DNA of 64,000 nt from Promethearchaeota archaeon (GCA_048938895.1 JBHLLU010000007.1:32001-96000), one strand, 5' to 3'; positions 17,020 to 47,330 are shown, counted from the first letter of the stretch. Made by a program: numbers and translations. The notes: generated by a model not told the origin, from the sequence alone.

Positions 17020-17589
17020 TTGAGTGATGTTAAAGGTTATGGATTTAAAATTACTGTTATCGGGGATGGTGCTGTGGGAAAAACTTCATTAATCAAAAAA
17101 TATACTCAAGGATCCTTCCAGAATGAATATATCGCTACGTTGGGAACTCAATTTTCTAAATACGAGGAGATCATTGATGGAGATAAGGTTGAACTATATC
17201 TTTGGGATATTGCAGGTCAGGATTCATTTGATGCATTACGTCAAAGATTTTATATTGGCAGTAGTGGAGCTATTATTGTATTTTCTCATGCGTCTGAACA
17301 ATCTGCAAGTTTTGATCATATAACGAAATGGCTGAGTGATTTAAAAAAGCATTGTGGAAACATACCAATTGTTCTTTTCGGAAATAAAATTGATTTAATC
17401 GAGAATGGTGAATTAAAATCGGATTCGAACAATCCAAAATCAGACGGTAATCTAGAAAAATTTGCAAAAGATAATCGGTTTGTTGGTTATTATAAGACCA
17501 GTGCTCTTACAGGTGAGGGAGTTACTGATGCGTTTAAAGCTTTGGTTAGAAAACTCTATATGATCGCTAAGGTCTCAAGCTTTTCATAA
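17020..17589 (+). CDS. Rab-like small GTPase (paralog 2, TTG start)
   Basis: GDGAVGKTS, YIATLG, WDIAGQD, GNKID, KTSA. Confidence 0.93.
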   Translation: MSDVKGYGFKITVIGDGAVGKTSLIKKYTQGSFQNEYIATLGTQFSKYEEIIDGDKVELYLWDIAGQDSFDALRQRFYIGSSGAIIVFSHASEQSASFDHITKWLSDLKKHCGNIPIVLFGNKIDLIENGELKSDSNNPKSDGNLEKFAKDNRFVGYYKTSALTGEGVTDAFKALVRKLYMIAKVSSFS

Positions 17590-24786: not shown

Positions 24787-27657
24787 TTAACTGTTTACAA
24801 GATATTTTTTAAGATATTTTGCGGTAAATGAGGTTTTTGAGTCAAGGATTTGTTCGGGAGTACCTTTGGTGACAATTTTACCACCTTTTTCCCCACCTTC
24901 GGGGCCTAAATCAATAATATAATCGACAGATTTTATAATATCCATATTATGTTCAATAATAATTACTGTATTTCCTTTATCTACTAATCTTTGGAGTACT
25001 TGTAATAAAAATTTAATATCATACATATGTAATCCTGTAGTAGGTTCATCTAAGATATATAATGTATTTCCTGTACTTGTTTTTCTCAACTCTCTTGCAA
25101 TTTTTAATCTTTGGGATTCTCCACCACTTAAAGTGGTTGAAGATTGTCCTAATTCCAGATAACCTAAACCGACATCTACCACAGTTTTTAAGGTTCTTTT
25201 CAAATTAGGAATATTGTCAAAAAATTCCAAGGCTTGATTGAAGGTCATTTTCAAAACTTCTGAAATTGATTTCCCCTTATATCTTACTTCCAAGGTCTCT
25301 GCATTATATCTTTCCCCTTTACACAGATCACATCTGATATAAACATCAGGTAGGAAATACATTTCTTTAAGGATATAGCCAGTCCCTTTACATTTTTTAC
25401 AATGCCCTGCTTTGGTATTAAAGCTAAATCTACCTTTATTATAACCTCTTTCTTTCGATTTTGGTAATTGAGCAAATATATCTCGAATATAATCTAAAGC
25501 TTTTGTATAAGTTGAAGGAACAGACCTAGGGGTTCTTCCTATTGGAGATTGATCAATGTTAATAATTTTATCTATTTTATCATAACCTTTTATAGTATCA
25601 AAATCTCCTTGTCTAATTTTAGAACTGCGACTATTAATGAGATTATGTAATCCTTTATAAAGACAATCTATAATTAAACTTGTTTTACCCGCCCCTGAAA
25701 CACCAGTTACGCATGTGAATACGCCTAATGGAATTTCGATTTCAATATCTTTTAAATTATTTTCTCTTGCGCCGAAAAGTTGCAAAAAATCATTATCTGA
25801 TTTACGTCGTTTTTTAGGGATTTCAATTTTTTCCATCCCTGATAAAAATTTTCCAGTCAAGGTATCAGACTTTATTATTTCATCTAATGAACCCTCAGCA
25901 ACGATTTCTCCCCCTTTAACACCTGCTAAAGGTCCTAGATCTATAATGTGATCAGCATTCTCCATTATCGCTTCATCATGCTCTACAACAATAACTGTAT
26001 TACCAAGATCTCGTAATTTTTTTAACATTTTTATAAGTCTATTAATATCCCTTTGATGTAAACCAACACTTGGTTCATCCAAAACATATAACACCCCCAC
26101 TAGACTAGAACCTAATTGAGTCGCTAATCTAATTCTTTCTGCTTCTCCAACTGATAATGTATCTGAACGTCGGCTTAAAGATATATAATCTAATCCTACA
26201 TTTTCTAGAAAAGATAATCGATCATTAATCTCTTTTAGTATTTCTTTTGCAATCGTTCTATCAGTCTCATTTAATTGTAGTGATTTAAAAAATTTGATTG
26301 AATCTTTTACAGATAAATCAGTTAATTGAGCGATATTCATATTATTTATAGTTACTGCCAGACTCTCTGGTTTTAAGCGTTTCCCATCACACTGAGGACA
26401 TGCAATCCGATTCATAAAACTTTCATAATTTTCTCGTGCCCATTCAGACCGTGTCTCCATATATCTCCGATGTAGCAATGGTATTATTCCCTCAAATGGT
26501 CTTATAACATCCCAAGAAGATTTATATTCCTCGTGATTATTTCTATATTCATTTCCATTGCTTTCAAAGTGAAATTGAATTGCTTCATCTTCTGTACCAA
26601 ATAACATTTTATTTAATTTCTCAGGCTCTATTTCCTGTAATGGAGTTTTATTAGCACTGAATCCATAGTGTTTAGCTACCTGAACTATGGTTTGCCAAGA
26701 ATATCCCGTTAAAGAGTTAAATCCTGGAATGTCTCTTATTGGTGTATCTATAAGCGGTACTGATAAATCATCGCCTAATACAAGTCCATAATCGAATTCC
26801 ATCACGGTACCAAGACCACTACAATATCTACAACTCCCATGAGGGATATTGAATGAAAACATCTTATGGTCTAATTGTGGAAAAGAAATGCCACAATCTA
26901 TGCAAGCAAGGTGTTCAGAATAAATTTGTTCTGCATCATCAACAACTTCGACTATAACTAATCCTTCTGCGAGTTCTAACGCGTTTTCTATTGAATCTGC
27001 TAATCTTGTTTTTATATCTTTACGCATTACTAACCTATCAATTATGACATTAATATTATGTTTAACATTCTTTGGCATTGTTATTTCTTCATCTAAAGTA
27101 TATTGAATCCCATCAACTTCTACTCTTACATATCCTTGCTTTCTTAAATCTTGTAGAAGATCTTTATACTCTCCTTTCCGGTCTCGAATTACTGGAGATT
27201 TAATTATAAATTTTTGATTTTCCTTTATAGAATCGAGAAGAATTTGAATAATTTGTTGCGGGGTTTGTGGTCTTATTTCTTTTCCACAATTAGGACAATG
27301 TGGAACACCAATATTTGCGAAAAGAAGCCGATAATAATCATAAATCTCCGTAACCGTTCCTACTGTACTTCTAGGATTTTTCGAGAGTGGTTTTTGTTCT
27401 ATCGCAATTGCCGGTGATAAACCTTCAATGGAATCTACATCTGGTTTATCCATTTCGCCTAAAAACTGACGGGCATAGCTTGATAGTGATTCTAAAAATC
27501 TTCTCTGTCCTTCTGCATATAAAGTATCCATTGCTAGACTAGATTTACCACTTCCACTTATTCCTGTTATAACCACTAGTTTATTACGAGGGATAACAAC
27601 ATCAATGTTTTTAAGATTATTTTGTCTAGCCCCTTTTATTACTATAAATTCACTCAT
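24787..27657 (-). CDS. uvrA: Excinuclease ABC subunit A
   Basis: GARQNNLKN, TGISGSGKSSLA, EGQRRFLESLS, zinc fingers, second ATPase GVSGAGKT/LSGGE/LDEPTTGLH. Confidence 0.97.
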   Translation of the reverse strand: MSEFIVIKGARQNNLKNIDVVIPRNKLVVITGISGSGKSSLAMDTLYAEGQRRFLESLSSYARQFLGEMDKPDVDSIEGLSPAIAIEQKPLSKNPRSTVGTVTEIYDYYRLLFANIGVPHCPNCGKEIRPQTPQQIIQILLDSIKENQKFIIKSPVIRDRKGEYKDLLQDLRKQGYVRVEVDGIQYTLDEEITMPKNVKHNINVIIDRLVMRKDIKTRLADSIENALELAEGLVIVEVVDDAEQIYSEHLACIDCGISFPQLDHKMFSFNIPHGSCRYCSGLGTVMEFDYGLVLGDDLSVPLIDTPIRDIPGFNSLTGYSWQTIVQVAKHYGFSANKTPLQEIEPEKLNKMLFGTEDEAIQFHFESNGNEYRNNHEEYKSSWDVIRPFEGIIPLLHRRYMETRSEWARENYESFMNRIACPQCDGKRLKPESLAVTINNMNIAQLTDLSVKDSIKFFKSLQLNETDRTIAKEILKEINDRLSFLENVGLDYISLSRRSDTLSVGEAERIRLATQLGSSLVGVLYVLDEPSVGLHQRDINRLIKMLKKLRDLGNTVIVVEHDEAIMENADHIIDLGPLAGVKGGEIVAEGSLDEIIKSDTLTGKFLSGMEKIEIPKKRRKSDNDFLQLFGARENNLKDIEIEIPLGVFTCVTGVSGAGKTSLIIDCLYKGLHNLINSRSSKIRQGDFDTIKGYDKIDKIINIDQSPIGRTPRSVPSTYTKALDYIRDIFAQLPKSKERGYNKGRFSFNTKAGHCKKCKGTGYILKEMYFLPDVYIRCDLCKGERYNAETLEVRYKGKSISEVLKMTFNQALEFFDNIPNLKRTLKTVVDVGLGYLELGQSSTTLSGGESQRLKIARELRKTSTGNTLYILDEPTTGLHMYDIKFLLQVLQRLVDKGNTVIIIEHNMDIIKSVDYIIDLGPEGGEKGGKIVTKGTPEQILDSKTSFTAKYLKKYLVNS

Positions 27658-27961: not shown

Positions 27962-28264
27962 TTGAATATAGTTAAAGAGCGTGAGGATTCAAAATCATTA
28001 ATACGAAGGCTCTTCACTAAACCACGGGAACTTGATAATAAAAAGATTGAGCCTTTATTTAAGATACTGGATGAAATTGCAAAAGCACATAATAAAACTC
28101 TTGCACAAGTGGCAATTAATTGGCTTATAACAACAGAACAGATATGTGTTATACCAATTCCAGGAATTAGAAATATACGACAAATAAATGATAATATGGG
28201 TGCACTCGGTTGGCACATTACGAAAGAAGAACGTGCTCATATCAACAAAACCGAGATTAGTTGA
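27962..28264 (+). pseudogene. 5'-truncated aldo/keto reductase remnant
   Basis: Only the AKR C-terminus is present (EIAKAHNKTLAQVAINWL...VIPIPG.RNIRQINDNMGALGW); in-frame TGA at 27905 upstream. Confidence 0.75.
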
Positions 28265-28305: not shown

Positions 28306-29049
28306 TTATTTATATTCAGATTCATCTACAACCAAATTGGGATCAAGTAATCCTTTTTGAATTTTCCTTAATACATAATTCCTAAATTCCTTGCTTGTGA
28401 AATTTCGAGTTTCAAATTGATTAAATTCCTCTACTTTTTCTCCTGATTTATTATTAATTGTTTCAACATCCCGCATGACATATTCAACCATCGTTGCGCC
28501 TAATAATATACTAAATAAAAAGGATGAAATTAAAGCAGCATCTTTTTCTTTGATCTCTCCTTTATCAATTGCTTTTTGAATTACGCGAGTAGTTCCTTCC
28601 AGATATCTAAAGGGCTTATATTCTTTTTCAAATGGTCCTTTTTTTTCTGAGGGAGGAGATCGGATAATGTGCATCATTCGAAAAGCCGCATAATCTTTTT
28701 CTGCAAATTCAAAAAAGTGTTTAAAAATTTTTAGTAATAAATCAACAGTTGAACCGTTAAAATTCTTAATGATCTCCCGGTTTTCATTCCTGTATTGTTC
28801 ATAAAACTTTTTCCTTATCGCAATCCATAGTTCTCGTTTGCTTTCTACATAATTATAGAGATTATTTTGGCTCATACCTAATTTTCTTGCGAGACCACGT
28901 AGTGTGAAACCATGAAGTCCTTGTTCTTGAAATAATTGTTTTCCTACTTCAAGAATTTCATCAAATTGTTGAGCTTTCTTCTCAGGAGACCTACTTCTTG
29001 TTTGTTTTTTACTATTAATATCGCTTTTTCCATCAATCATTGATTTCAC
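28306..29049 (-). CDS. TetR/AcrR family transcriptional regulator
   Basis: ILEVGKQLFQEQGLHGFTLRGLARKLGMSQNNLYNYVESKREL HTH. Confidence 0.92.
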   Translation of the reverse strand: MKSMIDGKSDINSKKQTRSRSPEKKAQQFDEILEVGKQLFQEQGLHGFTLRGLARKLGMSQNNLYNYVESKRELWIAIRKKFYEQYRNENREIIKNFNGSTVDLLLKIFKHFFEFAEKDYAAFRMMHIIRSPPSEKKGPFEKEYKPFRYLEGTTRVIQKAIDKGEIKEKDAALISSFLFSILLGATMVEYVMRDVETINNKSGEKVEEFNQFETRNFTSKEFRNYVLRKIQKGLLDPNLVVDESEYK

Positions 29050-29159: not shown

Positions 29160-30104
29160 ATAGCATCAAAATCTAAAGGTTTAATCTTCAAAATTGAGAG
29201 AATGGCTACTGACGATGGCCCTGGTATTCGTACGACAATTTTTTTTAATTATTGTCCCTTAAATTGCATTTGGTGTCATAATCCAGAATCCATTCCAAAG
29301 AAACCTCAACTTCAATGGATAGATCGTAAATGTATTGGTTGTAATAGTTGTGTAGATGCTTGCCAAGAGAATATCCTATTTTTTGAAGAAGATGGTTTAC
29401 ATATTAATAGAGAGAAATGTACTAGTTGTGGAGATTGTGCAGAAGCCTGTCCAAGTACGGCATTAACTATGTGGGGTAAGTGGTGGGATCTAGATATTCT
29501 TTTTCGCGATATTGAGAAAGAAAAAATATTTTTTGATAAAACAAGAGGAGGTATTACCGTTTCTGGTGGTGAACCTACATTTCAAGCAGATTTTCTCTTA
29601 CAGTTATTAAAATTATGTAAGGAAAATGACATTACTACTGCTTTAGATACTTGTGGATATTCAAGTAAAAAAGTTTATCAAGATTTATTACCCTACGTTG
29701 ATATTGTCCTTTTAGATATAAAAGTCATTGATCCTAAAAAACATGAAGAATATACGGGTGTTCCAAATAAAATAATTTTAGATAATGCTAAATGGATTTC
29801 ACGTTATATCAAAGAAAATGGAAAAGTTATGTGGATAAGAACACCAATAATTCCTCACTATACTGCAACTAAAGAGAATGTTAAAGGAATTGGAGAATTC
29901 ATTGTAAATGAATTAAATAATATTCCTGATCAATGGGATCTATTAAGTTTTAATAAACTATGCGAAATTAAATATTCAAGGTTAGGTCAACCATGGCCTT
30001 TAAAGGATGAGCCCTTAATGACAAAAGAAGAGATGGAAAATTTTCTTGAAATTGCTAAAAATACAGGTGTCAAAAACGTTAAGTGGTCTGGTTTAACTCG
30101 TTGA
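29160..30104 (+). CDS. Glycyl-radical enzyme activating enzyme (radical SAM with 2x[4Fe-4S] insert); probable ATA start
   Basis: DGPGIRTTIF..CPLNCIWCHNPE, CxxCxxCxxxC twice, GGITVSGGEPT, DTCGY, IRTPIIP; conserved GLIFKIER continues in frame upstream of ATG 29202. Confidence 0.92.
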   Translation: MASKSKGLIFKIERMATDDGPGIRTTIFFNYCPLNCIWCHNPESIPKKPQLQWIDRKCIGCNSCVDACQENILFFEEDGLHINREKCTSCGDCAEACPSTALTMWGKWWDLDILFRDIEKEKIFFDKTRGGITVSGGEPTFQADFLLQLLKLCKENDITTALDTCGYSSKKVYQDLLPYVDIVLLDIKVIDPKKHEEYTGVPNKIILDNAKWISRYIKENGKVMWIRTPIIPHYTATKENVKGIGEFIVNELNNIPDQWDLLSFNKLCEIKYSRLGQPWPLKDEPLMTKEEMENFLEIAKNTGVKNVKWSGLTR

Positions 30105-30256: not shown

Positions 30257-32695
30257 TTATATTTCATTGAATACTGTTCTTGCGATAATATCATCCTGAA
30301 GTTCTTTTCTTAGATCTATGAATCGAGCAGAATAACCTGAGACTTTAACGGAAAGATCAGGATATTTCTCTGGATGAGCTTGAGCGTCTCTTAATGTTTC
30401 TGAACTTATTGGATTTATCTGAAGCTCTCGACCTCCCATCTCTAAATAAGCCTCCACTATAGAAGTTAAATGTTCGAGTCCCTCATCTGTTTCTAGTATA
30501 TTCGGATTGATTCTAATATTCATAGTTGCTCCATTCGTTAAATGAGGGTCAGCTGTAGCATAGGCTACTGATCGAAGTGTCATAGTAAGCCCATTCTTTT
30601 CCATACCGTTTGCAGGAGAAATACCATTTGATACAGGTTCATAGGCTAATCTTCCATCTGCAGTCGCCCCCAATGCTTTACCTTCCATAACTTGTGTTCC
30701 GGAAGATACAAGACAATTATGATATATACCATCACCGCCTCTTGCTTTATATTTTCTTGTAATATCACATATAGTAGATGCAACCCATTTTGCTAACTCG
30801 TCTACCTTTTCATCACCATTACCGTATTTGGGAGCTTTATTTCGTAATTTTTCTCGAAGTTCTTCCGCCCCCTTGAAATTATTATTCATATGGTTAACTA
30901 ATTCTTCCATGCTCACTAATTTCTCTTCAAAAACTGCCCATCGAATTGCTGCTAAGGAGTCTGCGACACCACCAAGTCCTTGAGACCCCATTGGGTTGTT
31001 GTTATATTTAGCTCCGTTTCTAGTTGCATCCATTCCGCTTTCGAGACATCCTTCTATCGTAGATGATAGCAATGGGGAAGGTAGGTAATCTGCAAATGCT
31101 TTATCCTTTAACTCAGCCTTTTGTACCGTGAGATCTATAGCAAATTTAAGCTGTTCTACATAAGCTTTCTTGACATCTTCAAAAGATTTAAAAGTTTTAG
31201 CTGGGGGTGTTTTCACTCCAACAGTTTTATTTCCTGAAAAAATAGTGCGTCCTTCATTTAATGCCATGTTAAGAAGGATTGAAATCTGAATAGCATTCCC
31301 TGCAGTATAAGAGAAATCATTACCAGTACCATGGGGTTCCACGCATCCCACAAGTGAATAATCTCTAGCATCCTCTAATGAATATCCAGTATTATGAAGT
31401 TGTGGGACTAGAACTTCATCATTATGAATGCCCATTCCAGCTGTATATTTAAAAGCTTCAATTGTCCTTTTCAGAAAATTATGGGGTGTCTTGGAAGAAA
31501 TTCGTATTGATATTGTATTTAATAAGCTTTTTACATTTGCAACAGCCTCAAGAAACATGTATGATACATCATTAGTAGCGTCATTTCCATCCTTGTCTAG
31601 TCCACCGATAGTTACATTATTCTGTCCTGCGATAACGACAGAAGCAAGTTTAACTAAATACTCCTCAACGAGTTCTAAAGCTTCTTCATAAGTAATACGG
31701 CCTTCGGCTAAATCAGCGGCATAATATGGGTAAAGATATTGGTCAACGCGTCCTTGAGAAAATATATTTCCTTCACCATAACTCATTTCCATGACGACAT
31801 TAGTCATCCATATTGATTGAAGTGCTTCTATAAATGTTCTTGGTGGAAGGGCAGGTACTCGTCTTGTGCGTTCAGCAATTTCTAAGAGTTCAGCCTTTCT
31901 TGTTTCTGAAGCATTTTCTGCCATTTCCACTGCAAGATCAGCATAACGATTGGAATAATCGCAGGCAGTTCTTGCTGCAACTACGACTGATTCATAAAAA
32001 TCCTTGCGTTGGTCATATTTTTCATCAGTCTCCCTGAGTTTCGTAAGCCCTTCTTCTGCCATTTTTTCAATTCCTCTAAATCCCATTTTAAGAACTCGTC
32101 TATATCCAGGAATAACATGTCCTTGACCACTAGCACCTGCAAATATATCAGTGCCGCCCCGAGATCTACCCATAGGACTTAGTTCAGACTCTGCTGTAGT
32201 TAAACCTGCTTTTTCCCAATATTCTCTTTTCCGAGCTGCTACTGTTCTTCCTTTCCAGAAGGGGACGATTTCATTTTTCAACTCATCCATTTCTTCCTTT
32301 GGTAAGGGAAGATATCGATTAAGGAAAGTAAATTTTTTGGCAAACCCATCTCTTATTCTTTTATCTATTGCATCATTAAAGATAAACCCAAAAATACTAG
32401 CACGCATTCCACGTTCTATTTCAATTGGATCGGCTCTTACCTTACTAGATTTTACACCCACAAGAAGCTCATCGTTCTCAATCCTAATCGGTAAGCGATG
32501 TAAGAATTCCTCTAATGCTTTAGCATTCTTCATACAGGGCGGAGCATCTTCCATTTGTTTATATATTATTGTATAACACCGAGCTCGTTCAATATCAAGT
32601 TCTCTAGGCATAGAAAGCATTCTATCTCTAATCTTTCGAACCCTCTCGGAAGGAATCCCTTGAAGAGGGGTCATTTTAATACCTTGAACAACCAT
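30257..32695 (-). CDS. Glycyl radical enzyme (PFL superfamily, eliminase-like), copy 1
   Basis: GRVDQYLYPYY, VGCVEP Cys loop, APKYGNGD, ATADGR, Gly loop VKVSGYSARF. Confidence 0.93.
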   Translation of the reverse strand: MVVQGIKMTPLQGIPSERVRKIRDRMLSMPRELDIERARCYTIIYKQMEDAPPCMKNAKALEEFLHRLPIRIENDELLVGVKSSKVRADPIEIERGMRASIFGFIFNDAIDKRIRDGFAKKFTFLNRYLPLPKEEMDELKNEIVPFWKGRTVAARKREYWEKAGLTTAESELSPMGRSRGGTDIFAGASGQGHVIPGYRRVLKMGFRGIEKMAEEGLTKLRETDEKYDQRKDFYESVVVAARTACDYSNRYADLAVEMAENASETRKAELLEIAERTRRVPALPPRTFIEALQSIWMTNVVMEMSYGEGNIFSQGRVDQYLYPYYAADLAEGRITYEEALELVEEYLVKLASVVIAGQNNVTIGGLDKDGNDATNDVSYMFLEAVANVKSLLNTISIRISSKTPHNFLKRTIEAFKYTAGMGIHNDEVLVPQLHNTGYSLEDARDYSLVGCVEPHGTGNDFSYTAGNAIQISILLNMALNEGRTIFSGNKTVGVKTPPAKTFKSFEDVKKAYVEQLKFAIDLTVQKAELKDKAFADYLPSPLLSSTIEGCLESGMDATRNGAKYNNNPMGSQGLGGVADSLAAIRWAVFEEKLVSMEELVNHMNNNFKGAEELREKLRNKAPKYGNGDEKVDELAKWVASTICDITRKYKARGGDGIYHNCLVSSGTQVMEGKALGATADGRLAYEPVSNGISPANGMEKNGLTMTLRSVAYATADPHLTNGATMNIRINPNILETDEGLEHLTSIVEAYLEMGGRELQINPISSETLRDAQAHPEKYPDLSVKVSGYSARFIDLRKELQDDIIARTVFNEI

Positions 32696-32721
32696 AATTC
32701 TTATATTGTTTTTTTATTATT

Positions 32722-32750
32722 TAAATTAACTATGTTAATTTATTTATAAA
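32722..32750 (-). promoter_or_regulatory. TATA box plus palindromic operator upstream of GRE copy 1
   Basis: Perfect TAAATTAAC-TAT-GTTAATTTA (32722-32742) abutting TTTATAAA (32743-32750). Confidence 0.7.
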
Positions 32751-32893
32751 TTATTGTAATAATGTATAATCTTTTATAAAAAATTTTGTAATAAAGTTAA
32801 TTTTATTTAGTTTTAGCAAGTAAGTTAAAAGAAAGAATTTCTTTAAGGCTATTTAAAAATATTAATAAAAATTAAAAAAATGAAAACTAAATT

Positions 32894-35323
32894 TTATAAT
32901 TCATTAAATACTGTACGGGAAATGATGTCATTTTGAAGACTTCTACCCACTTCTATAAAACGAGCAGAATAACCTGTAACCTTAACTGATAAGTCAGGGT
33001 ATTTTTCTGGATGAGCTTGAGCGTCTCTTAATGTTTCTGAACTTACTGGATTAATTTGAAGTTCTCTTCCTCCTATTTCTAAATAAGCTTCAACAATAGA
33101 AGTTAACTTATCTACACCCTCTTCTGTTTCTATTAAACTGGGATTGATCCTTATGTTCATTGATGCTCCACCGGTTAGGAGGGCATCTTTTGTCGCGTAA
33201 GCTACTGATCGGAGCGTCATAGTAAGCCCATTTTTCTCTGTTCCGTTTGCAGGAGATATGCCGTTAGAAACAGCTTCACCAGATAATCTTCCATCGGGAG
33301 TAGCTCCTAACATTTTACCCTCAAGTATATTAAGTCCTGAAGATACAAAATATGTGCGATAAATACCAGCACCACCTCTGGCAGGATATTTTCTCACAAT
33401 ATCACATAAAGTATTCGCAACCCATATTGCTAGTTCATCTGTCCGTTCATCACCATTACCGTATTTGGGAGCCTTATTTCTTAAAAGTTCTTTAAGTTTC
33501 TCTGCTCCCTTGAAATTATTATTCAGATGCGTAACTAATTCTTCCATTGTTAACAACTTTTCTTCGAATACAGCCCAACGAATTGCTGCTAATGAATTGG
33601 TTACGGTTGCTAATGCTTGACAGCCAATAGGGTTGTTATTATAGAGCGCTCCATTTCGAGTTACATCTTTTCCACTCTCTAGACATCCCTCTATTGTAGA
33701 TGAAAGCAAGGGGGAAGGAAAATAATCTGCATATACTTTATCCTTTAGTTCAGCCTTTTTCACCACTAAATCTACTCCAAAGGAAAGCTGGTCTACAAAA
33801 GCTTGTTTCACATCTTCGAAAGTTTTAAATGTACTTGGATGAGGGGTTTTTGCTCCAAATTGGCGGTTCCCTGCTATAATCATTTGTCCTTCGTTTAAAG
33901 CCATATGTAAAACGGTTGACAATCGAACACCATTACCTGCAGTGTATGAAAAATCAAAACCTGTACCATGAGGTTCTACACAACCTACAAGTGAGTAATC
34001 TCGGGCATGTTCTAGTGAATAGCCATCTTCTTGAAGCTGTGGTACTAAGATTTCATCATTATGAATGCCCATTCCACCTGTGTATTTAAAAGCTTCAATA
34101 GTTCTTTTCACAAAATCCCGAGGTGTCTTGGAAGAAATCCGTATTGATATTGTATTCAATAAACTTTTTACATTTGCAACAGCTTCAAGAAACATATAAG
34201 ATATATCATTTGTGGTATCATTTCCATCCTTATCTAATCCTCCAATAGTTATATTATTCTGTCCTGCGATAACAACAGAAGCAAGTTTAACTAAATATTC
34301 CTCAATGGCTTCCAAAGCTTCCTCATAAGTAATCCGTCCTTCTGCTAAATCAGCTGCATAATAAGGATAAAGATATTGATCTACTCGTCCTTGAGAAAAT
34401 ATATTACCATTACCATAGCTCATTTCCATGACGACGTTGGTCATCCATACCGATTGAAGTGCTTCCATGAAACTTCTGGGTGGGAGGGAAGGCACTCTTC
34501 TTGTCCGTTCAGCGATATCTAAAAGTTCTGCTCTTCTATGTTCTGGTGCATTTTCAGCCATCTCTATTGCCAGATTTGCGTAACGATTAGAATAATCACA
34601 AACAGCTTTGGAACAAACTTGAACTGCTTCATAAAAAGTCTTGCGATTTTCGTAATCCTCATCATCTTCTTTAAGTTTTTCAAGTTCTTCGATAGCTCGT
34701 TTTTCTATTCCTTTAAATCCTATTTTAAGAACTCGTTTATACCCTGGAATGGTATGACCCTGCATATTTGCATAAAATGGGTTAATCCAACTCTCAGCTC
34801 GTTCCATAGAACTCTTTTTCTCCTTGAATAAGCCTGCTTCGATCCAAAGTTTTTCTTTCAGGTCCGTTAATGTCTTCCCTTTCCAAACTGGGATAATATC
34901 ATTTTTCAATTCGTCAAGTTCTTCTTCTGTAAAAGGGACATAACGTCTAAGGATGGGATTACGCCTGCGGAAATAATCTTTAGTTTTTTCGTCTATTGAA
35001 TCATCTAAAAGAAAATCATATGTTCGAACATGCCTTCCAAGTTCTATTTCAAAAGGATCAGCTCGTATTTTACTGGATTTTACTCCTACAAGAATTTCAT
35101 CAGTGTCAATCCTAATAGGGAGGCAGCGCAAAAATTCTTCTAATGCTTTAGCCTTTTTCATGTAGGGATGAGCATCTTCCATCTGTTTCCAAATCCTTGA
35201 ATAGCATCGTGCTCGCTCAAGATCATATTCGAAGGGTTGGGATAACATTTTGTCCCTAATTTTACGAACCCTTTCTGTAGGAATACCTTGAAGTGGAGTC
35301 AATCTGATATCTTGAACTACCAT
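32894..35323 (-). CDS. Glycyl radical enzyme (PFL superfamily, eliminase-like), copy 2
   Basis: GRVDQYLYPYY, VGCVEP, APKYGNGD, ATPDGR, VKVTGYSARF; colinear paralog of copy 1. Confidence 0.93.
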   Translation of the reverse strand: MVVQDIRLTPLQGIPTERVRKIRDKMLSQPFEYDLERARCYSRIWKQMEDAHPYMKKAKALEEFLRCLPIRIDTDEILVGVKSSKIRADPFEIELGRHVRTYDFLLDDSIDEKTKDYFRRRNPILRRYVPFTEEELDELKNDIIPVWKGKTLTDLKEKLWIEAGLFKEKKSSMERAESWINPFYANMQGHTIPGYKRVLKIGFKGIEKRAIEELEKLKEDDEDYENRKTFYEAVQVCSKAVCDYSNRYANLAIEMAENAPEHRRAELLDIAERTRRVPSLPPRSFMEALQSVWMTNVVMEMSYGNGNIFSQGRVDQYLYPYYAADLAEGRITYEEALEAIEEYLVKLASVVIAGQNNITIGGLDKDGNDTTNDISYMFLEAVANVKSLLNTISIRISSKTPRDFVKRTIEAFKYTGGMGIHNDEILVPQLQEDGYSLEHARDYSLVGCVEPHGTGFDFSYTAGNGVRLSTVLHMALNEGQMIIAGNRQFGAKTPHPSTFKTFEDVKQAFVDQLSFGVDLVVKKAELKDKVYADYFPSPLLSSTIEGCLESGKDVTRNGALYNNNPIGCQALATVTNSLAAIRWAVFEEKLLTMEELVTHLNNNFKGAEKLKELLRNKAPKYGNGDERTDELAIWVANTLCDIVRKYPARGGAGIYRTYFVSSGLNILEGKMLGATPDGRLSGEAVSNGISPANGTEKNGLTMTLRSVAYATKDALLTGGASMNIRINPSLIETEEGVDKLTSIVEAYLEIGGRELQINPVSSETLRDAQAHPEKYPDLSVKVTGYSARFIEVGRSLQNDIISRTVFNEL

Positions 35324-35483: not shown

Positions 35484-37232
35484 TTATTCCACAGATAAAC
35501 TCTCTTTAGGTTCTTGAATTTCTGATCGTATCGACGTAGGAGGATTTACACACCAAATATAATGTCCCTCCTCGACTTTTATCCTATGAGGTAATTCAAA
35601 TTCACATTCTTTAGTACGTGCATCTGAAGAGCAGCGTGGATTAAAAGTGCATCCCGGTGGGGGTGCTATAGGACTTGGAACTTCTCCTTTAATAACAAAA
35701 CTGATTTCTTGATTGTATGGATCAATGTCAGAATGTGAAGAAAGAAGTGCTTGAGTATACGGATGAGTGGGTCTTTTAAAAACTTGTTCTTTACTTCCAA
35801 CTTCTACAATTTTTCCAAGATACATGACAGCAACACGATCAGCAATATAATTTACAACAGCTAAATTATGAGTAATAAACAGATATCCATACCCATATTG
35901 TGCTTGTAACTCTCTAAGAAGATTGAGTATTTGTGCTTGAACTGATACATCTAGTGCCGAAGTTGGCTCGTCTAAGATAATTAATTCAGGATTACATGCC
36001 AATGCTCTCGCAATAACAATTCTTTGCTTCTGACCACCAGAAAATTCATGCGGGTAGCGATCCATATGCTCTCGTTTTAAGGAAACTTCGTCCAGCAATC
36101 TTAATACACGTTTTCTGATTTCTATTTTATCTGTAACAGCAAGTAAATTTCTGAGCGGTTCTGCTATTATATCAACTATTTTCATACGTGGATTTAAAGA
36201 TGCATCTGGATCTTGAAAAACCATTTGTATCTTATGTCTTAAATAAGCAGAATAATCTGGAGGGATTGATTTATTTTGGAACAACATTTCTCCTTCGGTC
36301 TTATCTACCAAACCTAGAACAGCTTTAGCAACTGTTGTTTTCCCACATCCACTTTCTCCTACTAAACCCAATGTCTCACCAGTTTTTATGCTAAAAGAGA
36401 TTCCATTAACTGCCTTCACAGCACCAATTTGCCTTTTAAGGGTTCCTTTATAGAGGGGATAGTGTACTTTAAGATCTTTTACGTTAAGTAAAGCTTTATC
36501 TTTCTCAAGAACAGTTAAACCTCTGAGTTCTGTTAGTTCTATGGTTTGGTAAGCTATGAATTTCACAACCACGATAACAATAATTGCTATAATAAAACTA
36601 AATAAGATATTACTAAAAGCATTCTTAAGAAATTTGTCTTGTTGAGTAATAAAGGTTAATATTAAATAATAGACTCCAGGTGCTATGCTACCAAAAGCAA
36701 GAGGTATCCTATGTTGCACTAATTGTATTTTATTGCCCCAATAAGCCAGTAAAATAGATAATCCGAAAAGAAAGAGAAAACCTAGAGCAAAAGTAAATTT
36801 TGACCCATCTAAATCATCATTTCCTTCAATTAGCCAGATATTAAGGATCTTAGGAAGAGCATTTAAAAACAACGATATTACTAGTAAAATACCTTGAATG
36901 AATCCAATAATTTTGATGGACTCAAAAAAATTTTTATTATAAAATCCCCATAAAACTAATACACCAATAGGGATAAATAGTATTGCATTTACAAAAATCA
37001 GTATTAAAGAGGAATCAATGATAGAATTCAATATAATAAAAGTGAAGACCAATAAAAGTGAATAACCTAATTGAATCAAAGTGAAAAGTAACCAAATAGA
37101 ATTTATTACGAGAGCAATCTTCGTTGAATTCTCCCACATCTTCGATCTTATATAACTTCTCATGATAAAAAATCCAATTATGAATAGAATAACTGGAAAA
37201 ATAATAATTTCAGATATATCAACCATGATCAT
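35484..37232 (-). CDS. OppF/DppF-type ABC ATPase fused to N-terminal multi-TM domain
   Basis: GESGCGKTT, FQDP, YPHEFSGGQKQR, DEPTSALD, HPYT, C-terminal Cys motif; first ~225 aa strongly hydrophobic. Confidence 0.88.
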   Translation of the reverse strand: MIMVDISEIIIFPVILFIIGFFIMRSYIRSKMWENSTKIALVINSIWLLFTLIQLGYSLLLVFTFIILNSIIDSSLILIFVNAILFIPIGVLVLWGFYNKNFFESIKIIGFIQGILLVISLFLNALPKILNIWLIEGNDDLDGSKFTFALGFLFLFGLSILLAYWGNKIQLVQHRIPLAFGSIAPGVYYLILTFITQQDKFLKNAFSNILFSFIIAIIVIVVVKFIAYQTIELTELRGLTVLEKDKALLNVKDLKVHYPLYKGTLKRQIGAVKAVNGISFSIKTGETLGLVGESGCGKTTVAKAVLGLVDKTEGEMLFQNKSIPPDYSAYLRHKIQMVFQDPDASLNPRMKIVDIIAEPLRNLLAVTDKIEIRKRVLRLLDEVSLKREHMDRYPHEFSGGQKQRIVIARALACNPELIILDEPTSALDVSVQAQILNLLRELQAQYGYGYLFITHNLAVVNYIADRVAVMYLGKIVEVGSKEQVFKRPTHPYTQALLSSHSDIDPYNQEISFVIKGEVPSPIAPPPGCTFNPRCSSDARTKECEFELPHRIKVEEGHYIWCVNPPTSIRSEIQEPKESLSVE

Positions 37233-37252: not shown

Positions 37253-39136
37253 TTATTCTGATAACCTTTCTGCCTTTTGTATAGAAATTCTAGCTAAATC
37301 TTCATATTCTGGATCATAAAGATGACATGCTACAAAATATCCAGTCTCAACCTCAACTTGGATTGGAATTTTTGAATCACATGGCTCAAAACAATAACGA
37401 CATCTAGGATGATATCTACATCCTGAAGGGGGGTAAATTAGATTTGGTACCATTCCAGGAATTACTTCAAGTTTTTGTTGTCTTTTCTTCATAACAGGAA
37501 CAGAAGCAATAAGTCCTCTAGTGTATGGATGATAAGGTTTAATAAATAATTTTTTTATATCTCCATATTCAACAATGGATCCGCAATACATCACCGCAAC
37601 TCGATTACACATTTTAGAGATAATTCCAAGATCATGTGTAATAAATAATATAGTTGTATTATATTTCTTACGAAGATCTTTCATCAGTTTCAGAATTTGA
37701 TTTTGAATTGTGACATCAAGTGCTGTGGTAGGTTCATCAGCAATTAATAGCTTGGGTCTACATGCAAGAGCCATCGCAATCTGGACTCGTTGGCGCATAC
37801 CACCACTTAACTCATGTGGGTATCGATCAATAATTACATGAGGAAAGGGGATATTCAATTCCCTTAAAAGATCTATACTCCATTCTCGAGCAATACCGTA
37901 AATAGTTTTATCAGGAAATTTGGAAGCTTCAGCAAGCATTTCATTCTCCATATGTAGTAAGAATACTTCTGAAATTTGCTTACCAATTCTATAAACAGGA
38001 TTGAGAGAATTTAGTGGATCTTGAAAAATCATAGTAATTTCTTTACCACGATATTTTAACATTTCATTTTCAGGTTTTATTATTAGATTTTCCCCACCAA
38101 AAATAACACTGCCTTTTTCAATTTTTCCTGGAGGTCGAATTACTCGAAGAATTGATAATGCGGTTACAGATTTGCCGCATCCCGTTTCACCCACAAGACC
38201 AAGAACTTCTCCCTCGTATAGCTTAAAAGAAACATTCTCTACAGCACGAACAGTACCCTCTTCGGTGTGGAAGTAAGTAGTGAGATTCTTCACGTCAAGA
38301 ATCGTATGATTCCCTCCTGAAACAAAATCTTGTACAGTTTGCATTTCAGCTTCAACTATTTCAATTGCTCTTTGAACCCTTAACTTGCCTTTTTCCTCGG
38401 CTTTAGGTAAAAATATCTTAATCAAAGATACAAGAAAAATAGCAACATATATATTACTAAAAATTATAAATTCAAAACGAATATCCTGTTTGAATACCAT
38501 TATTCCAAGCCATCTGTTTAAATATAACTCAAAAATTATTAGCTGTATTGACCAGATCCCGAATGCAACAAGTCCACCAGTAAACATAGCGTATCTGAGA
38601 ATTTCCTTAGAAATACGTTTCTCAATTGGAAGAGCGCTATTTATTAAAATTGTGATACCCATATCAAATAAAATAATTAAAGCTGCCCATATAAAACCTA
38701 TGTTGAAAATATCAGGATTACTCATTCTAATTCTCAGAAGAGAAATTGAAAAGAATACACCACAAATTATCCAAGATATTATAATAAAATAATTAAATAC
38801 TTTTTGAAATAGATTACTCAAAAAGGGATCTCCTATTGAACCAAATTTTTCCTTTTTAATTACCAGTTCTTTATAAAAGACATTAAACAGAGTTGCCATA
38901 AGAGCAAACATTAAACTATCATTATTCATCATTAAAAATAGAGTAAAATAAGCCCCTATAGTTTCAAGAAAGCTCCGAATACCAAATATTATGAAAAAAA
39001 CTATGATACAAATTACAAGTGAGCTTTTTCTATGAATTGAACGCAAGATTTTTTTGTCTTCAGGGAGATATTTATGAATTAAATTCGAAATAAAGAACAA
39101 AATGAGCATAGCAACGAATGTTTCAATGAAAGCCAT
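37253..39136 (-). CDS. OppD/DppD-type ABC ATPase fused to N-terminal multi-TM domain
   Basis: [44 protein letters not shown]; first ~245 aa hydrophobic. Confidence 0.88.
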
Positions 39137-39207: not shown

Positions 39208-40203
39208 TTATAAACTTAATCGTGGATCCAATGCATCTCGCAGTCCATCTCCTACAAGCATAAATCCTATAGATGTTACTCCTATTAATAGTCCAGGCCA
39301 AACAGCCGCATTGACATTGCTAAATGTAGCTCTTGCCCAATTAATATCAGTTCCCCAACTGGCAACAGTTGGATCTCCAAATCCTATAAAAGCTAAACCT
39401 GCTAGACCTATTACAGCGACCGCTGCTCCGCCAAAAAATGCTATTATCATAGGGCTAATAGCATTAGGTATAATATGCTTAAACATCACTTTGAACTTTT
39501 GCGCACCACCTGTTTTTGCTGCTTGAATATATTCTAATTGCTTTACTTGTAACACAAGGGATCGCATAAACCTGGTCCTATATGGTATAAAAAGAATTCC
39601 ATAAATTACAAGACTAGTAAATAATGCTTGTCCCAGTATAGGAACGAGTATGACAACCAGAACCAAATTTGGAAATGCATACATTACATCTACAAAACGC
39701 ATCATTAGATAATCTACCGTGCCACCAAAATATGCTGATATCGTTCCTAAGATAAGTCCTCCTCCAATTGAGATGGATACAGGAATTAATGCCATTAAAA
39801 ATGTGGTTCTACCACCCCAAATAATTCTTGCTAAAACATCATATCCATATTTTGTTGTCCCTAAAGGATGTTCGGGTGATGGAGAAGCAAATGCAGTTTC
39901 TCCAGCAGGAATATAAGGTATCACTATCTCTTCTATTCTATAGTGAGTTAACCAAGGAGTATATATTGCTAATACCATAATGAATAGGATCATTACCATT
40001 CCTGATATTGTTAAAGGTCTCAGAAGGCGTCGAAACATTCTCCTTTTAGATTTTATTTTTTCTATCTGATATTCTTGAGCTGAGAATTCAGGATCTCGCC
40101 AACCAGGAGTTAAATAAAATCTTAAGAATCGAAAAAATTGCTTTTTCCTATCTAATTCAGGCTGTATTTGAATCTTATCCTCAATAAAAGTTTGTTCTGT
40201 CAT
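39208..40203 (-). CDS. OppC/DppC-type ABC permease
   Basis: HPLGTTKYGYDVLARIIWG, EYIQAAKTGGA, KHIIPN, GDGLRDALDPR. Confidence 0.93.
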   Translation of the reverse strand: MTEQTFIEDKIQIQPELDRKKQFFRFLRFYLTPGWRDPEFSAQEYQIEKIKSKRRMFRRLLRPLTISGMVMILFIMVLAIYTPWLTHYRIEEIVIPYIPAGETAFASPSPEHPLGTTKYGYDVLARIIWGGRTTFLMALIPVSISIGGGLILGTISAYFGGTVDYLMMRFVDVMYAFPNLVLVVILVPILGQALFTSLVIYGILFIPYRTRFMRSLVLQVKQLEYIQAAKTGGAQKFKVMFKHIIPNAISPMIIAFFGGAAVAVIGLAGLAFIGFGDPTVASWGTDINWARATFSNVNAAVWPGLLIGVTSIGFMLVGDGLRDALDPRLSL

Positions 40204-40227: not shown

Positions 40228-41304
40228 TTAAGTATATGTTATTCTAGGATCAATAATAGTATACATGACGTCCGCAACTAAATTCCCTGTAAGAAGTATT
40301 ATGGTAGAAAATACTAAGAGTCCGTTTATAACTAAATAATCTCCTAAAAATATCGACTCAACCATATAAAAGCCAAAACCTTTATATTCAAAAGTTACTT
40401 CAATAAAAAAAGATCCTAGTAATGCCGTTGCGGTCCCCCCGATAATAAGATTGCTAGTGGGTAATAAAGCATTTCGAAGGGCATGTTTATTTATAACATC
40501 TTTTTCTATAACACCTTTAGCTCTCGCAGTTCTAATGTAATCTTGATCTAAAACATCTAACATACTTGATCGGGTTTGCCTAGTAATAGCGGCCAACGAA
40601 ACAAAAGTTACGCATAGAGCCGGAAGAAGTAAATGTTGTAATGTGTCCCATAGATAAATTTGATCATTATAGAGGAAACTATCAATTAAACGAAATCCTG
40701 TTTTATCCCAAGGCCAAACAAGGTCTGGCTCTGGATATCTCAATCCTGGAGTATTAGCGAAAAATACAGGTAAGTCTAATTTAGTATACGTAAACGTTCC
40801 CAAATAATAACCAAATAAGAGCTGAAGCAAAGTAGCAATCCAAAACACGGGAAACCCAGCTCCAAAAATTGCAAGAGCTCTGATGAGAATATCTTTTGAT
40901 TTATCCTTATGGGTTGCTGATGATAGTCCAAGCTTAACTGCAATGATAGGACTTAATACTATCGGAATTATCATTAATTCTATTGTTCTTGGAAATACTT
41001 CTAAAATAAAATCGATAACAGGAACATTTTCTCGAATTACATAAGAATTACCCCAATCTCCTGTAAAAAAATTTTTATAATACAAACCCAATTGAACATA
41101 CCAAGGATCATAGAAACCAGCTCTCTCTAATTCGGCTTTAAGCACGTCAAAATCAACTAAGCCACCTAATTTGTTGGTAATTGGGCTTACTTCCATCAAA
41201 TGCGATAAAATCCAGGCAAAAGTTAGAACAAGAAACAACATTGGGATCATCATTAATATCCGTCTGATGATATATTTTATCATATTTGTCTTTTTTTTAA
41301 CCAC
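40228..41304 (-). CDS. OppB/DppB-type ABC permease
   Basis: YIIRR, GDWGNS, DYIRTARAKG, HALRNA, IIDPRI. Confidence 0.93.
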   Translation of the reverse strand: MVKKKTNMIKYIIRRILMMIPMLFLVLTFAWILSHLMEVSPITNKLGGLVDFDVLKAELERAGFYDPWYVQLGLYYKNFFTGDWGNSYVIRENVPVIDFILEVFPRTIELMIIPIVLSPIIAVKLGLSSATHKDKSKDILIRALAIFGAGFPVFWIATLLQLLFGYYLGTFTYTKLDLPVFFANTPGLRYPEPDLVWPWDKTGFRLIDSFLYNDQIYLWDTLQHLLLPALCVTFVSLAAITRQTRSSMLDVLDQDYIRTARAKGVIEKDVINKHALRNALLPTSNLIIGGTATALLGSFFIEVTFEYKGFGFYMVESIFLGDYLVINGLLVFSTIILLTGNLVADVMYTIIDPRITYT

Positions 41305-43919: not shown

Positions 43920-45023
43920 ATGACTCAAATTGATAATTATGAGATTGTAAGACAAAAATTACAAATTGGAACAATAACTGCTCCTAACCACAAAAAAATA
44001 TTCAAATTGATGAAGATTTTCTGGAATGAAGATGAGATCAAAGTTTTATCTCAATTTAATAATGTGGGGATGAAAACCTCTCGAAAAGAATTAGCGGAAA
44101 AAACAGGTAAATCAGAAGAAGAAATAGAAGAACTGTTAAGAAGATCAGCAAGAAATGGCACCGTTTTGAGATCTGGCTCAGATTATCGATTGCTTCCGCT
44201 TGTACCAGGTATATTTGAAATGTACTTTATCAGACGAAAGGATTCTGAAGAAAATCTTCACAAAGTTGCAGAGATTTATCGATACATTTTCAAAAACAGA
44301 GCACCAGATTTAGAAGATGATAAAAGCATCCGAAGAGGATTCCGTCCTTTACTTCCATATGATTCTGAGGAGAAGTTAATTAAAGTTGATGAATCGTTAG
44401 ATGTTGAGACTAAGGTTCTTCCTTTTGAAGTAGTTAAAGATATGATCGATAAAAATGAATCATTTGCCGTTGTACCTTGTCAGTGTCGGTTAATTGGTGA
44501 ATATACAGGAGAACCATGCAAACATGCATCTGCAGAATTGGGTTGTTTTCTAACTGGAGAAGCTGCGGAAAGGCAGATAGGTTATGGCGCAAAAAGACTG
44601 ACTAAGGAAGAAGCTATTGAGTTTATTAGAGAAACTGAGAAAGCAGGACTTGTTCATAATACTGTTGCAGATACCAGTAAAGACACGTCTCAATGGATTT
44701 GTAATTGTTGTAGTTGTCATTGTGGAGTATTACTTCCCGCCAAATTATATCATTATAAGGGTGTTTTTCAGACTAATTTTACTCCTGAATTTGATATGGA
44801 ACTCTGTACTAAATGTGAAATATGTATGGAAAAATGTCCTAACGAAGCGATTTATCATGTCTGGCCAAGTAAACCAGATTCATCAGATGAGAAGATGAAA
44901 GTTAGAGAAGAAATGTGTATAGGATGCGGAACTTGTGCTGCAAATTGTCCAAATAATGCAATTAAAATGGTTAAAGTAAGAGACGAGCACCCTAAAAGAC
45001 TGAGCATAAATATTTTTGGTTAA
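43920..45023 (+). CDS. Iron-sulfur protein: N-terminal wHTH-like region, PCxCR/CNCCxCxC motifs and 2x[4Fe-4S] ferredoxin domain
   Basis: PCQCR, GLVH, ICNCCSCHC, CTKCEICMEKCP, CIGCGTCAANCP. Confidence 0.85.
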   Translation: MTQIDNYEIVRQKLQIGTITAPNHKKIFKLMKIFWNEDEIKVLSQFNNVGMKTSRKELAEKTGKSEEEIEELLRRSARNGTVLRSGSDYRLLPLVPGIFEMYFIRRKDSEENLHKVAEIYRYIFKNRAPDLEDDKSIRRGFRPLLPYDSEEKLIKVDESLDVETKVLPFEVVKDMIDKNESFAVVPCQCRLIGEYTGEPCKHASAELGCFLTGEAAERQIGYGAKRLTKEEAIEFIRETEKAGLVHNTVADTSKDTSQWICNCCSCHCGVLLPAKLYHYKGVFQTNFTPEFDMELCTKCEICMEKCPNEAIYHVWPSKPDSSDEKMKVREEMCIGCGTCAANCPNNAIKMVKVRDEHPKRLSINIFG

Positions 45024-47325: not shown

Positions 47326-47330
47326 AGTAA

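Follow-up and report, generated by a model that had tools for sequence, protein, structure and literature searches.

Two tandem glycyl radical enzymes with a KVxGY loop and a shortened pre-β3 segment belong to an operon-linked subfamily found in Asgard archaea

What reaction might be served by two tandem genes for glycyl radical enzymes (GREs) in an Asgard archaeon when their active-site motifs match no characterized class? The genes occupy positions 30,257 to 35,323 of a 64,000-nucleotide stretch from a Promethearchaeota archaeon (GCA_048938895.1, JBHLLU010000007.1:32001-96000); this whole stretch is called the window below. It encodes archaeal IF-2, TFIIB, STT3, and Ras/Arf-type GTPases, and its host is an Asgard archaeon. 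An earlier note on this DNA had described Lys in place of a near-invariant Arg in both Gly-radical loops and a substrate loop about a dozen residues short, and had proposed a new GRE subclass with an enlarged or remodelled pocket. Metabolic models for the Asgard group feed into views of how eukaryotes arose; they call such genes formate lyases or alkylsuccinate synthases, and the subfamily described here fits neither label. Both proteins fall in a fully supported clade that appears to lack the cap helix before strand β3, and their genes belong to a conserved operon with an activase and an ATP-binding cassette (ABC) importer. The enzymes probably, though by no means certainly, act on a hydroxylated compound that the cell imports, and convert it to an aldehyde by radical elimination or ring opening.

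The two genes and their defining motifs are given below; the phmmer references were C. butyricum glycerol dehydratase (GD, 1r8w) and K. pneumoniae CutC (5a0u).

30257-32695, minus strand: GRE 1 (P0001), of the KVxGY/short-loop subfamily, 812 amino acids (aa); Pfam PFL-like and Gly_radical
30332-30349, minus strand: Gly loop VKVSGY of GRE 1 with K784 and radical Gly787 (translation; aligned by phmmer to RVAGY of GD and CutC)
31334-31348, minus strand: Cys loop GCVEP of GRE 1 with C451 (thiyl) and E453 (CXE), aligned to GD C433/E435
31601-31651, minus strand: shortened pre-β3 segment KLASVVIAGQNNVTIGG of GRE 1, with a 13-residue gap against GD and CutC
31757-31789, minus strand: β1-strand motif EMSYGEGNIFS of GRE 1, with the subfamily signature S305-Y306-G307 (translation, phmmer)
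32117-32119, minus strand: His193 of GRE 1, aligned by phmmer with GD His164
32894-35323, minus strand: GRE 2 (P0002), paralogue of GRE 1, 809 aa; Pfam PFL-like and Gly_radical
32969-32986, minus strand: Gly loop VKVTGY of GRE 2 with K781 and Gly784 (translation)
33971-33985, minus strand: Cys loop GCVEP of GRE 2 (translation, coordinate check)
34238-34288, minus strand: shortened pre-β3 segment KLASVVIAGQNNITIGG of GRE 2 (translation, coordinate check)
34394-34426, minus strand: β1-strand motif EMSYGNGNIFS of GRE 2 (translation)
34754-34756, minus strand: His190 of GRE 2, counterpart of His193 in GRE 1 (coordinate check)

The tandem paralogues are 73% identical over their full length. P0001 matches PF02901 (PFL-like) with 539 bits and PF01228 (Gly_radical) with 87 bits, and P0002 scores 518 and 84 bits, respectively. 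Alignment to both references places the Lys of KVxGY under the Arg of RVAGY, as the note had read for both Gly loops. The motifs read out in the note were all confirmed. Compared with the fingerprint RVxG[FWY], P0001 retains the radical Gly787, Tyr788, and Cys451, and its first residue is Lys, not Arg. C451, E453, H193, and G787 are invariant in a 64-sequence alignment (A1), as is Tyr788. The CXE Glu, rightly named by the note as the eliminase Glu of GCVEP, is kept in 64/64 sequences of that alignment and in 91/91 sequences of the Asgard clade described below. Gly450 precedes Cys451, leaving no CC pair of the pyruvate formate-lyase (PFL) type, and the residue before Cys is Gly in 91/91 sequences of the same clade. 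In both GREs EMSYG(E/N)GNIFS stands in place of the ESNGHS-type motif, and the strand in P0001 exceeds GD ESNGHSIS by one residue. Judged from these sequences, both genes most likely encode functional GREs.

The second departure lies directly before β3. Aligned by phmmer with either GD or CutC, the P0001 stretch KLASV-V-IAG-QNNVTIGG is interrupted by three gaps (6, 4, and 3 residues) that add up to 13 residues, which bears out the missing dozen that the note had estimated; the segment of GRE 2 is likewise 13 residues short. The gap follows the end of the KL helix and immediately precedes the β3 strand N-V-T-I-G-G; the resulting loop is 17 residues long in P0001 vs a mode of 30 in other GREs (263-sequence alignment, see below). 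In the AlphaFold2 model of P0001 (64-sequence alignment, mean predicted local distance difference test (pLDDT) 91.8), a helix at 336–350 is followed only by coil at 351–359 and then by the strand at 360–364. As a control, P0105 from the same clade, which has a long loop, was modelled as well (mean pLDDT 92.0); here a short helix at 379–382 lies within the 31-residue segment, at a local pLDDT of 69–78. According to a 2026 review (PMC13450708), a cap helix located between β2 and β3 is a conserved element of GREs; it forms part of the substrate channel and hydrogen-bonds the substrate in some of them. In a study on HypD (PMC7077986), the substrate-binding Ser334 belongs to a short α-helix flanked by β2 and β3, Asp339 lies on β3, and Phe340 is needed for activity. 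We consider the cap helix lost because the 13-residue gap maps to this position and because the P0001 model shows coil at 351–359 where P0105 has a helix. By alignment and prediction, not by a solved structure, the KVxGY subfamily thus appears to be cap-less; substrate size, binding, or gating would therefore probably differ from those of all characterized GREs. The deletion and the two AlphaFold models are in this sense consistent with the enlarged or remodelled pocket of the earlier note. A loop at ~165–190 of P0001, which is poorly predicted (pLDDT 53–77) and varies between the paralogues, might speculatively substitute as a lid. For two other short-loop lineages, P0165 and P0156, the best solved matches were only GD (495 bits) and CutC (490 bits), and their PDB matches held no solved GRE usable as a model of a cap-less barrel. 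In full-text literature searches, neither a KVxGY nor a cap-less subfamily of GREs turned up. The subfamily departs from an element described as conserved in all GREs, and its structure and substrate would extend the rules of GRE binding and gating.

How widely are these traits shared? We aligned 263 of 275 proteins, leaving out 12 of <700 aa: both GREs of the window, three further GREs from its genome, 89 Asgard hits, 28 hits of ~50% identity, and 141 representatives. The latter were 141 of the best 150 of the 50%-identity clusters from an exhaustive search yielding 8746 matches at E ≤ 0.001 and 2115 at ≤ 1e-30. In the tree (FastTree LG+gamma, 791 trimmed columns, midpoint rooted), the Asgard proteins form a clade of 91 leaves (support 1.0), enclosed by a clade of 123 leaves (support 1.0) to which all 28 of the ~50%-identity relatives and four representatives also belong. 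All 91 Asgard and window sequences carry Lys at the third position before Gly and a loop of 16–17 residues. Among the 28 relatives, 23 have Lys and five Arg, and the loop is 17 residues long in 24. Lys thus occurs in 116/123 and the short loop in 118/123 members of the enclosing clade, within which a few Arg-bearing or long-loop members (e.g. P0105 and P0124) are nested. Outside it, the 137 representatives comprise 125 with Arg, 11 with Lys, and one with a gap; loops are ≥28 residues long in 110 and ≤23 in 23. Lys and the short loop coincide in a single representative among these 137 (P0156). The Arg is therefore less near-invariant than the note had claimed. Lys-for-Arg is a minority state with several separate origins, and short loops also occur elsewhere; the exchange is a conservative, lineage-wide swap with no demonstrated mechanistic meaning. 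Likewise, the proposed new subclass is distinct and uncharacterized, with full support and no family cut-off reached, but neither of its signatures is unique and its members were already in databases. The traits belong to the whole clade and not to this locus alone.

Beyond the two signatures, the clade is set apart by 43 positions with a residue conserved in its members (≥90%) and uncommon in other GREs (≤20%). Among them are S305-Y306-G307 (in GD, the same strand bears ESNGHS), N359, where β3 begins, N459, Y463, and T464 after the Cys loop, G666, N690, and E699, as well as E748, R756, and P762 in the glycyl radical domain. Glu748, where Arg or Lys stands elsewhere, was considered as a compensatory partner of Lys784 and rejected: Glu occurs in only 2/12 Lys-bearing sequences outside the clade, and Arg-bearing clade members carry Glu or Asp.

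Close homologues are all labelled Promethearchaeota, Loki-, Thor-, Odin-, Hod-, or Hermodarchaeota. A GRE at E ≤ 1e-100 was present in 276/400 genomes of the phylum, and matches to P0001 of ≥65% identity in at least 42/400 Asgard genomes, including 20/53 other genomes of the same genus (two candidates were scored per genome, making these counts lower bounds). The subfamily is accessory and patchy among Asgard genomes. Tandem multiplication is frequent (2–4 copies) and suggests substrate diversification; GRE 1 and GRE 2 differ at the predicted pocket strands and probably act on related but different substrates. The source genome holds five GRE genes in all. The three further ones, on contigs C53, C138, and C31 (L056–L058), read RVAGYS/GCVESG, RIAGYS/GCVEPQ, and VKVGGYN/GCVEPSS, respectively. 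The C31 protein has VKVGGYN with a normal 31-residue loop; the C53 paralogue, also with a 31-residue loop, has motifs that by eye resemble the A. fulgidus PFL2 type.

Which characterized GREs come closest? By phmmer, P0001 scored 421 bits with GD, 408–465 with CutC, 379–381 with propanediol dehydratases (PDs), 372 with A. fulgidus PFL2, and 364 with HypD. Lower scores were obtained with AAD (258), MASS (231), benzylsuccinate synthase (BSS, 230), HPAD (187), and PFL (115, the E. coli enzyme matching only over the C-terminal two thirds). The P0001 model has the GRE fold, and Foldseek ranked GD first (1r8w, TM scores 0.90/0.93, 32% identity), followed by PD and CutC; BSS and MASS gave TM 0.83–0.86 at 25% identity. 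The closest solved GREs (GD, PD, and CutC) are at most ~32% identical. Every NCBIfam GRE model stayed below its cut-off for both proteins: 546.6 and 504.7 vs 678.2 bits for TIGR01774 (PFL2/glycerol dehydratase), 477.2 and 451 vs 1050 for CutC (TIGR04394), 488.7 and 482 vs 1100 for HypD (NF043068), 482/474 vs 1000 for the sulfonate C-S lyases HpsG and IslA (NF048011/NF048009), and 138 and 131 vs 994 for PFL (TIGR01255).

In excerpts of two sources, the CXE motif is kept in all characterized GRE C-O, C-N, and C-S eliminases and isomerases, its Glu hydrogen-bonding the substrate hydroxyl (PMC13450708, PMC7077986), and in HypD both H160 and E436 are essential (PMC7077986). By its motifs, the subfamily appears to sit within these CXE-type GREs, which comprise 1,2-eliminases and ring-opening isomerases. 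With GD (1r8w/1r9d) and the PDs (5i2a/5i2g, 9rco–9rcr) it shares the GCVEP Glu, a single large subunit, a ferredoxin-type activase, and, in orthologous loci, aldehyde-handling enzymes as in diol-dehydratase clusters. Unlike GD, P0001 has Lys for Arg, lacks 13 residues including the neighbourhood of GD Y339, carries SYG instead of ESNGHS, and is encoded beside an ABC importer, not beside microcompartment or dha genes. We take the substrate contacts of GD to be H164, S282, Y339, D447, and Y640. Mapped by hand from the phmmer alignment, only His164 is kept, as His193; D447 becomes Ala465, S282 Ile311, and Y640 Val663, and the residue aligned with Y339 is Gln358, which borders the deletion. Because the presumed contacts D447, S282, and Y640 are not retained, P0001 is, on this alignment, not a glycerol dehydratase. 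CutC (5a0u, 5fau, 9f3w) resembles P0001 in fold (TM 0.90), in CXE, and in a Thr at Cys+13 (T464 in P0001), but has Asp at the position of His193 and a cap-helix segment with a Phe before β3 that P0001 lacks. HypD (6vxc) and its relatives HpyG and HpzG share CXE and the His, with His193 aligned to HypD His160, whereas the HypD contacts S334, D339, and F340 fall in or beside the segment deleted in P0001. A. fulgidus PFL2/PflD (2f3o) is likewise archaeal, has a single Cys after Gly, and is similar in fold (TM 0.88/0.92), but is 31% identical to P0001 and belongs to another clade; it is the only structurally characterized archaeal GRE, and PMC13450708 describes its function as unknown or debated. 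BSS and MASS share the GRE fold and an activase with extra Fe-S clusters, and differ in that P0001 comes without small subunits and without an Arg after the Cys loop, and has the CXE Glu.

The genes around the GRE pair bear on its function:

28306-29049, minus strand: TetR-family regulator (Pfam TetR_N)
29202-30104, plus strand, divergent from GRE 1: glycyl-radical activating enzyme (activase), a radical SAM protein with ferredoxin-like insert (TIGR02494, 297.5 bits vs cut-off 174.35; Pfam Radical_SAM and Fer4)
35484-37232, minus strand: Opp/Dpp-type ABC ATPase, OppF-like, with a hydrophobic N-terminal extension of ~240 aa (NCBIfam, Pfam)
37253-39136, minus strand: Opp/Dpp-type ABC ATPase, OppD-like, with an N-terminal extension of ~278 aa (NCBIfam, Pfam)
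39208-40203, minus strand: ABC permease, OppC-like (NCBIfam, Pfam)
40228-41304, minus strand: ABC permease, OppB-like (NCBIfam, Pfam)
41536-43746, plus strand, divergent: very divergent family-5 substrate-binding protein (SBP), 736 aa (Pfam SBP_bac_5, 80.9 bits)
43920-45023, plus strand: 367-aa protein with C-terminal 2x[4Fe-4S], a possible accessory gene of uncertain membership (recurs beside the SBP in L002 and L011)

This arrangement recurs. Across 55 Asgard loci and the window (56 in total; many contigs are short, and counts are lower bounds), gene clusters comprised the GRE in 54, the activase in 38, TetR in 21, the Opp ATPases in 21, the two permeases in 15 each, and the SBP in 14. The fixed order runs from the SBP (opposite strand) through a 178-aa membrane protein, two permeases, two long ATPases, and one to four GREs to the activase (opposite strand) and TetR; the membrane protein (cluster c8) is missing from the window. 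In five loci (L004, L006, L008, L024, L031), an aldehyde:ferredoxin oxidoreductase (AOR; AFOR_N, AFOR_C) and an Fe-alcohol dehydrogenase (Fe-ADH) stand between activase and TetR, and the GREs of these loci, 80–84% identical to P0001, are taken as its orthologues. In archaea, this pair corresponds to the two enzymes that deal with the aldehyde in bacterial diol, choline, and ethanolamine clusters. The source genome carries an adjacent Fe-ADH/AOR pair on contig C115 (60% and 72% identity) and a second pair on C153. A separate AOR gene that starts within the window (63277-63999, plus strand) and runs off its end is ~37% identical to the GRE-linked AOR, the true counterpart being on C115. GREs of the 809-aa P0002 type recur in 10 other loci, some between the importer and a P0001 type, others alone by uvrA or in unrelated contexts without an activase. 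The conserved operon points to an imported substrate broken down via an aldehyde, and it offers GRE, activase, and binding protein together as a biochemical target.

Several components of these loci are unusual in themselves. ABC importers do not usually have ATPase subunits anchored in the membrane; the extension of the ATPase at 35484-37232 is visibly multi-pass hydrophobic, and other Asgard loci likewise encode ATPases of ~560–660 aa. Cluster c9, absent from the window, is a protein of 738–806 aa that adjoins subfamily GREs in 10 Asgard loci (e.g. L039:3306-5522, minus strand), often accompanied by an HTH_10 regulator. Neither clusters c8, c9, and c14 nor the ATPase extensions matched a Pfam or NCBIfam family. 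For the SBP at 41536-43746, weak nickel/peptide-type NCBIfam matches and one PDB match (E = 1.4e-05) gave no informative clue to the ligand.

The relatives of ~50% identity lie on contigs of 0.42–0.65 G+C, and one source is named Actinomycetota, which suggests that they are bacterial. Of 30 such loci listed, 14 had their neighbours annotated (94 proteins). The activase directly follows the GRE in 10/14, and TetR or MerR-TetR regulators occur in 7/14; family-5 SBPs or Opp systems were found in L061, L063, and L074, and acyl-CoA dehydrogenases in L061, L071, L083, and L107. Further neighbours include enoyl-CoA hydratase, CoA ligase, CoA transferase, carboxylesterase, and α/β hydrolases, with a biotin carboxylase/carboxyltransferase fusion near some relatives. 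One subclade (L070, L078, L108) is accompanied by sugar genes for lyxose isomerase, PfkB, GH31, and dihydroxyacetone kinase. Proteins of ~370–400 aa with an unannotated N-terminal part and C-terminal 2x[4Fe-4S], a layout similar to that of the window protein at 43920-45023, adjoin the GRE in L071 (7686-8894) and L084 (8709-9881).

Given this setting, we favour, with moderate confidence, a CXE-type reaction in which a hydroxylated substrate, once imported, undergoes radical elimination or ring opening and yields an aldehyde. The radical-SAM activase would install the radical on Gly787 (Gly784 in GRE 2), from where it would move to Cys451. Cys451 would take a hydrogen from the hydroxyl-bearing carbon of the substrate, and Glu453, backed by His193, would deprotonate the hydroxyl; the leaving group on the neighbouring carbon would then depart, releasing a carbonyl product, most likely an aldehyde. 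The substrate would enter through the co-oriented Opp-like importer immediately upstream, with the TetR regulator nearby, and in orthologous loci AOR and Fe-ADH would handle the aldehyde. The reaction, its aldehyde product, and what the importer contributes are all inferred; the product is mainly supported because AOR and Fe-ADH adjoin orthologues in five loci.

A number of observations weigh against this assignment. AOR and Fe-ADH lie outside the cluster of the window and are linked to a GRE in only 5/56 loci. Peptides or oligosaccharides would be the cargo expected of an Opp-type importer, and neither is a known GRE substrate; the SBP of this importer is without an informative relative. The contexts of the higher-G+C relatives are heterogeneous, and a single substrate for the whole subfamily is therefore unlikely. 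Every equivalog model remains far below its cut-off, and the presumed GD contacts D447, S282, and Y640 are replaced. Glu at Cys+2 is also present in HPAD-type decarboxylases, so that CXE alone is no proof of elimination. Finally, according to the 2026 review, no archaeal PFL-like GRE is functionally characterized (PMC13450708), and this holds for every member of the subfamily.

A more specific version of the eliminase proposal seems doubtful to us. Cap-less KVxGY GREs might act on bulky amphiphilic or lipid-derived substrates, such as ether- or ester-linked glycerol or diol head groups. The leaving group would be an alkoxide or a long chain, and loss of the cap would open the barrel for the chain to protrude; the freed fatty alcohol or aldehyde would pass via Fe-ADH and AOR to beta-oxidation. 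Hints in this direction are two activases fused to a C-terminal SCP2 lipid-carrier domain (L049:12707-13876 and L053:2349-3569, both minus strand; E = 9e-13 and 4e-13) with genes for AMP-binding acyl-CoA ligases coming next, TetR regulators, carboxylesterases and α/β hydrolases in Asgard and higher-G+C loci, and the acyl-CoA dehydrogenases and enoyl-CoA hydratases beside higher-G+C relatives. If true, it would provide Asgard archaea and some bacteria in sediments with an O2-independent cleavage of ether lipids or related compounds.

Could the enzymes instead decarboxylate arylacetates, as HPAD, IAD, PhdB, or AAD do? GRE decarboxylases also occur in the PFL2-like part of the family, and the Cys+2 Glu of HPAD would be shared. 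Yet the NCBIfam models for IAD (333 bits) and HPAD (286 bits) score below the eliminase models (474–547), the phmmer scores of solved HPAD (187 bits) and AAD (258 bits) are low, and AOR and Fe-ADH neighbours suit an aldehyde, not a hydrocarbon or cresol product. No small subunit was found in the 56 loci, although AAD works without one according to excerpts of PMC13450708. A decarboxylase is hence unlikely.

Hydrocarbon activation by fumarate addition, that is, an X-succinate synthase (alkyl- or benzylsuccinate synthase), was raised by Zhang et al. 2021 (PMC8163825), who named Hermodarchaeota GREs with a 'GC' motif Ass/Bss. The acyl-CoA dehydrogenases, CoA ligases, enoyl-CoA hydratase, and biotin carboxylase/carboxyltransferase fusion beside some higher-G+C relatives could process alkylsuccinates. 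However, KVSGYS, KVTGYS, and VVIAGQNN occur 0 times in supplementary sequence file 6 of PMC8163825 (line wraps could hide some), and the Hermodarchaeota sequences shown there have RVAGYS and other β1 motifs, several resembling the C53 paralogue. We thus rejected the identification of the published Asgard Ass/Bss with this subfamily, the published sequences being other paralogues of the C53 type. Small Fe-S subunits are known for BSS and MASS (beta and gamma, with delta in MASS), as stated in excerpts of PMC13450708. Open reading frames (ORFs) of 40–130 aa within 3 kb of the GREs and not inside larger ORFs numbered 73 in the intergenic regions of the 56 loci; the largest cluster, in four loci, had 0 Cys, and the sole small ORF with ≥6 Cys was an activase fragment. 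Conserved Cys-rich small subunits were accordingly not found within 3 kb in the 56 loci scanned, in line with the note's reading that Bss/Ass-type subunit genes are lacking. Fumarate is described as bound by Arg508 in BSS and Arg492 in MASS. With Cys493 as the radical Cys of BSS, the Arg lies at about Cys+15; judged by this spacing only, P0001 has neither Lys nor Arg from C451+4 to C451+29 (455–480), and P0002 has one non-conserved Arg. The match to BSS and MASS is also poorer (~230 bits vs 408–465 for eliminases; TM 0.83–0.86, 25% identity), and the CXE Glu is invariant in the subfamily. Fumarate addition is, taken together, very unlikely.

A pyruvate or 2-oxoacid formate-lyase is still less probable. 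Database source names read 'pyruvate formate lyase family protein', and 2-oxoacid-formate lyases are invoked for Asgard amino-acid catabolism by Imachi et al. 2020 (PMC7015854), but the missing CC pair, which the note had already taken to exclude PFL, the TIGR01255 score of 138 vs 994 bits, and the partial 115-bit match to E. coli PFL speak against it. That these are dead or decaying paralogues, in which Lys for Arg abolishes glycyl radical formation, is very unlikely: RVxG[FWY] is described as a conserved fingerprint in excerpts of PMC13450708, yet Lys is found in 116/123 Asgard and higher-G+C clade members with full-length ORFs and intact catalytic residues, and in 11/137 other GRE clusters, and a cognate activase is adjacent in 38/56 loci.

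The surroundings of the cluster add some minor observations. The ~20 kb between uvrA (24787-27657) and uvrB (48116-50131) in the window contain the GRE/ABC cluster together with genes for an enoyl-CoA hydratase and for a corrinoid methyltransferase pair. The interval has a G+C content of 0.33–0.37, vs ~0.27–0.32 over much of the rest of the window. Synteny of uvrA-aIF2-CCA beside the GRE cluster recurs in six other loci, and uvrA adjoins a GRE in nine. The overlapping methyltransferase pair consists of a URO-D/MtaA-like methyltransferase (46027-47346, minus strand) and a corrinoid protein (47331-47969, minus strand) that best matches, at scores under the cut-off, corrinoid proteins for methylamine or glycine betaine. 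In the higher-G+C locus L070, too, there is a URO-D-family gene, which comes after the activase. A 100-aa ORF in the gap between uvrA and TetR (27962-28264, plus strand) looks by eye like the C-terminal part of an aldo/keto reductase and may be a remnant. Typical eukaryote-like Asgard genes in the window are the Ras/Arf-family small GTPases at 16337-16897 and 17020-17589 (both plus strand) and 60924-61406 (minus strand), and a 1307-aa STT3 oligosaccharyltransferase at 50269-54192.

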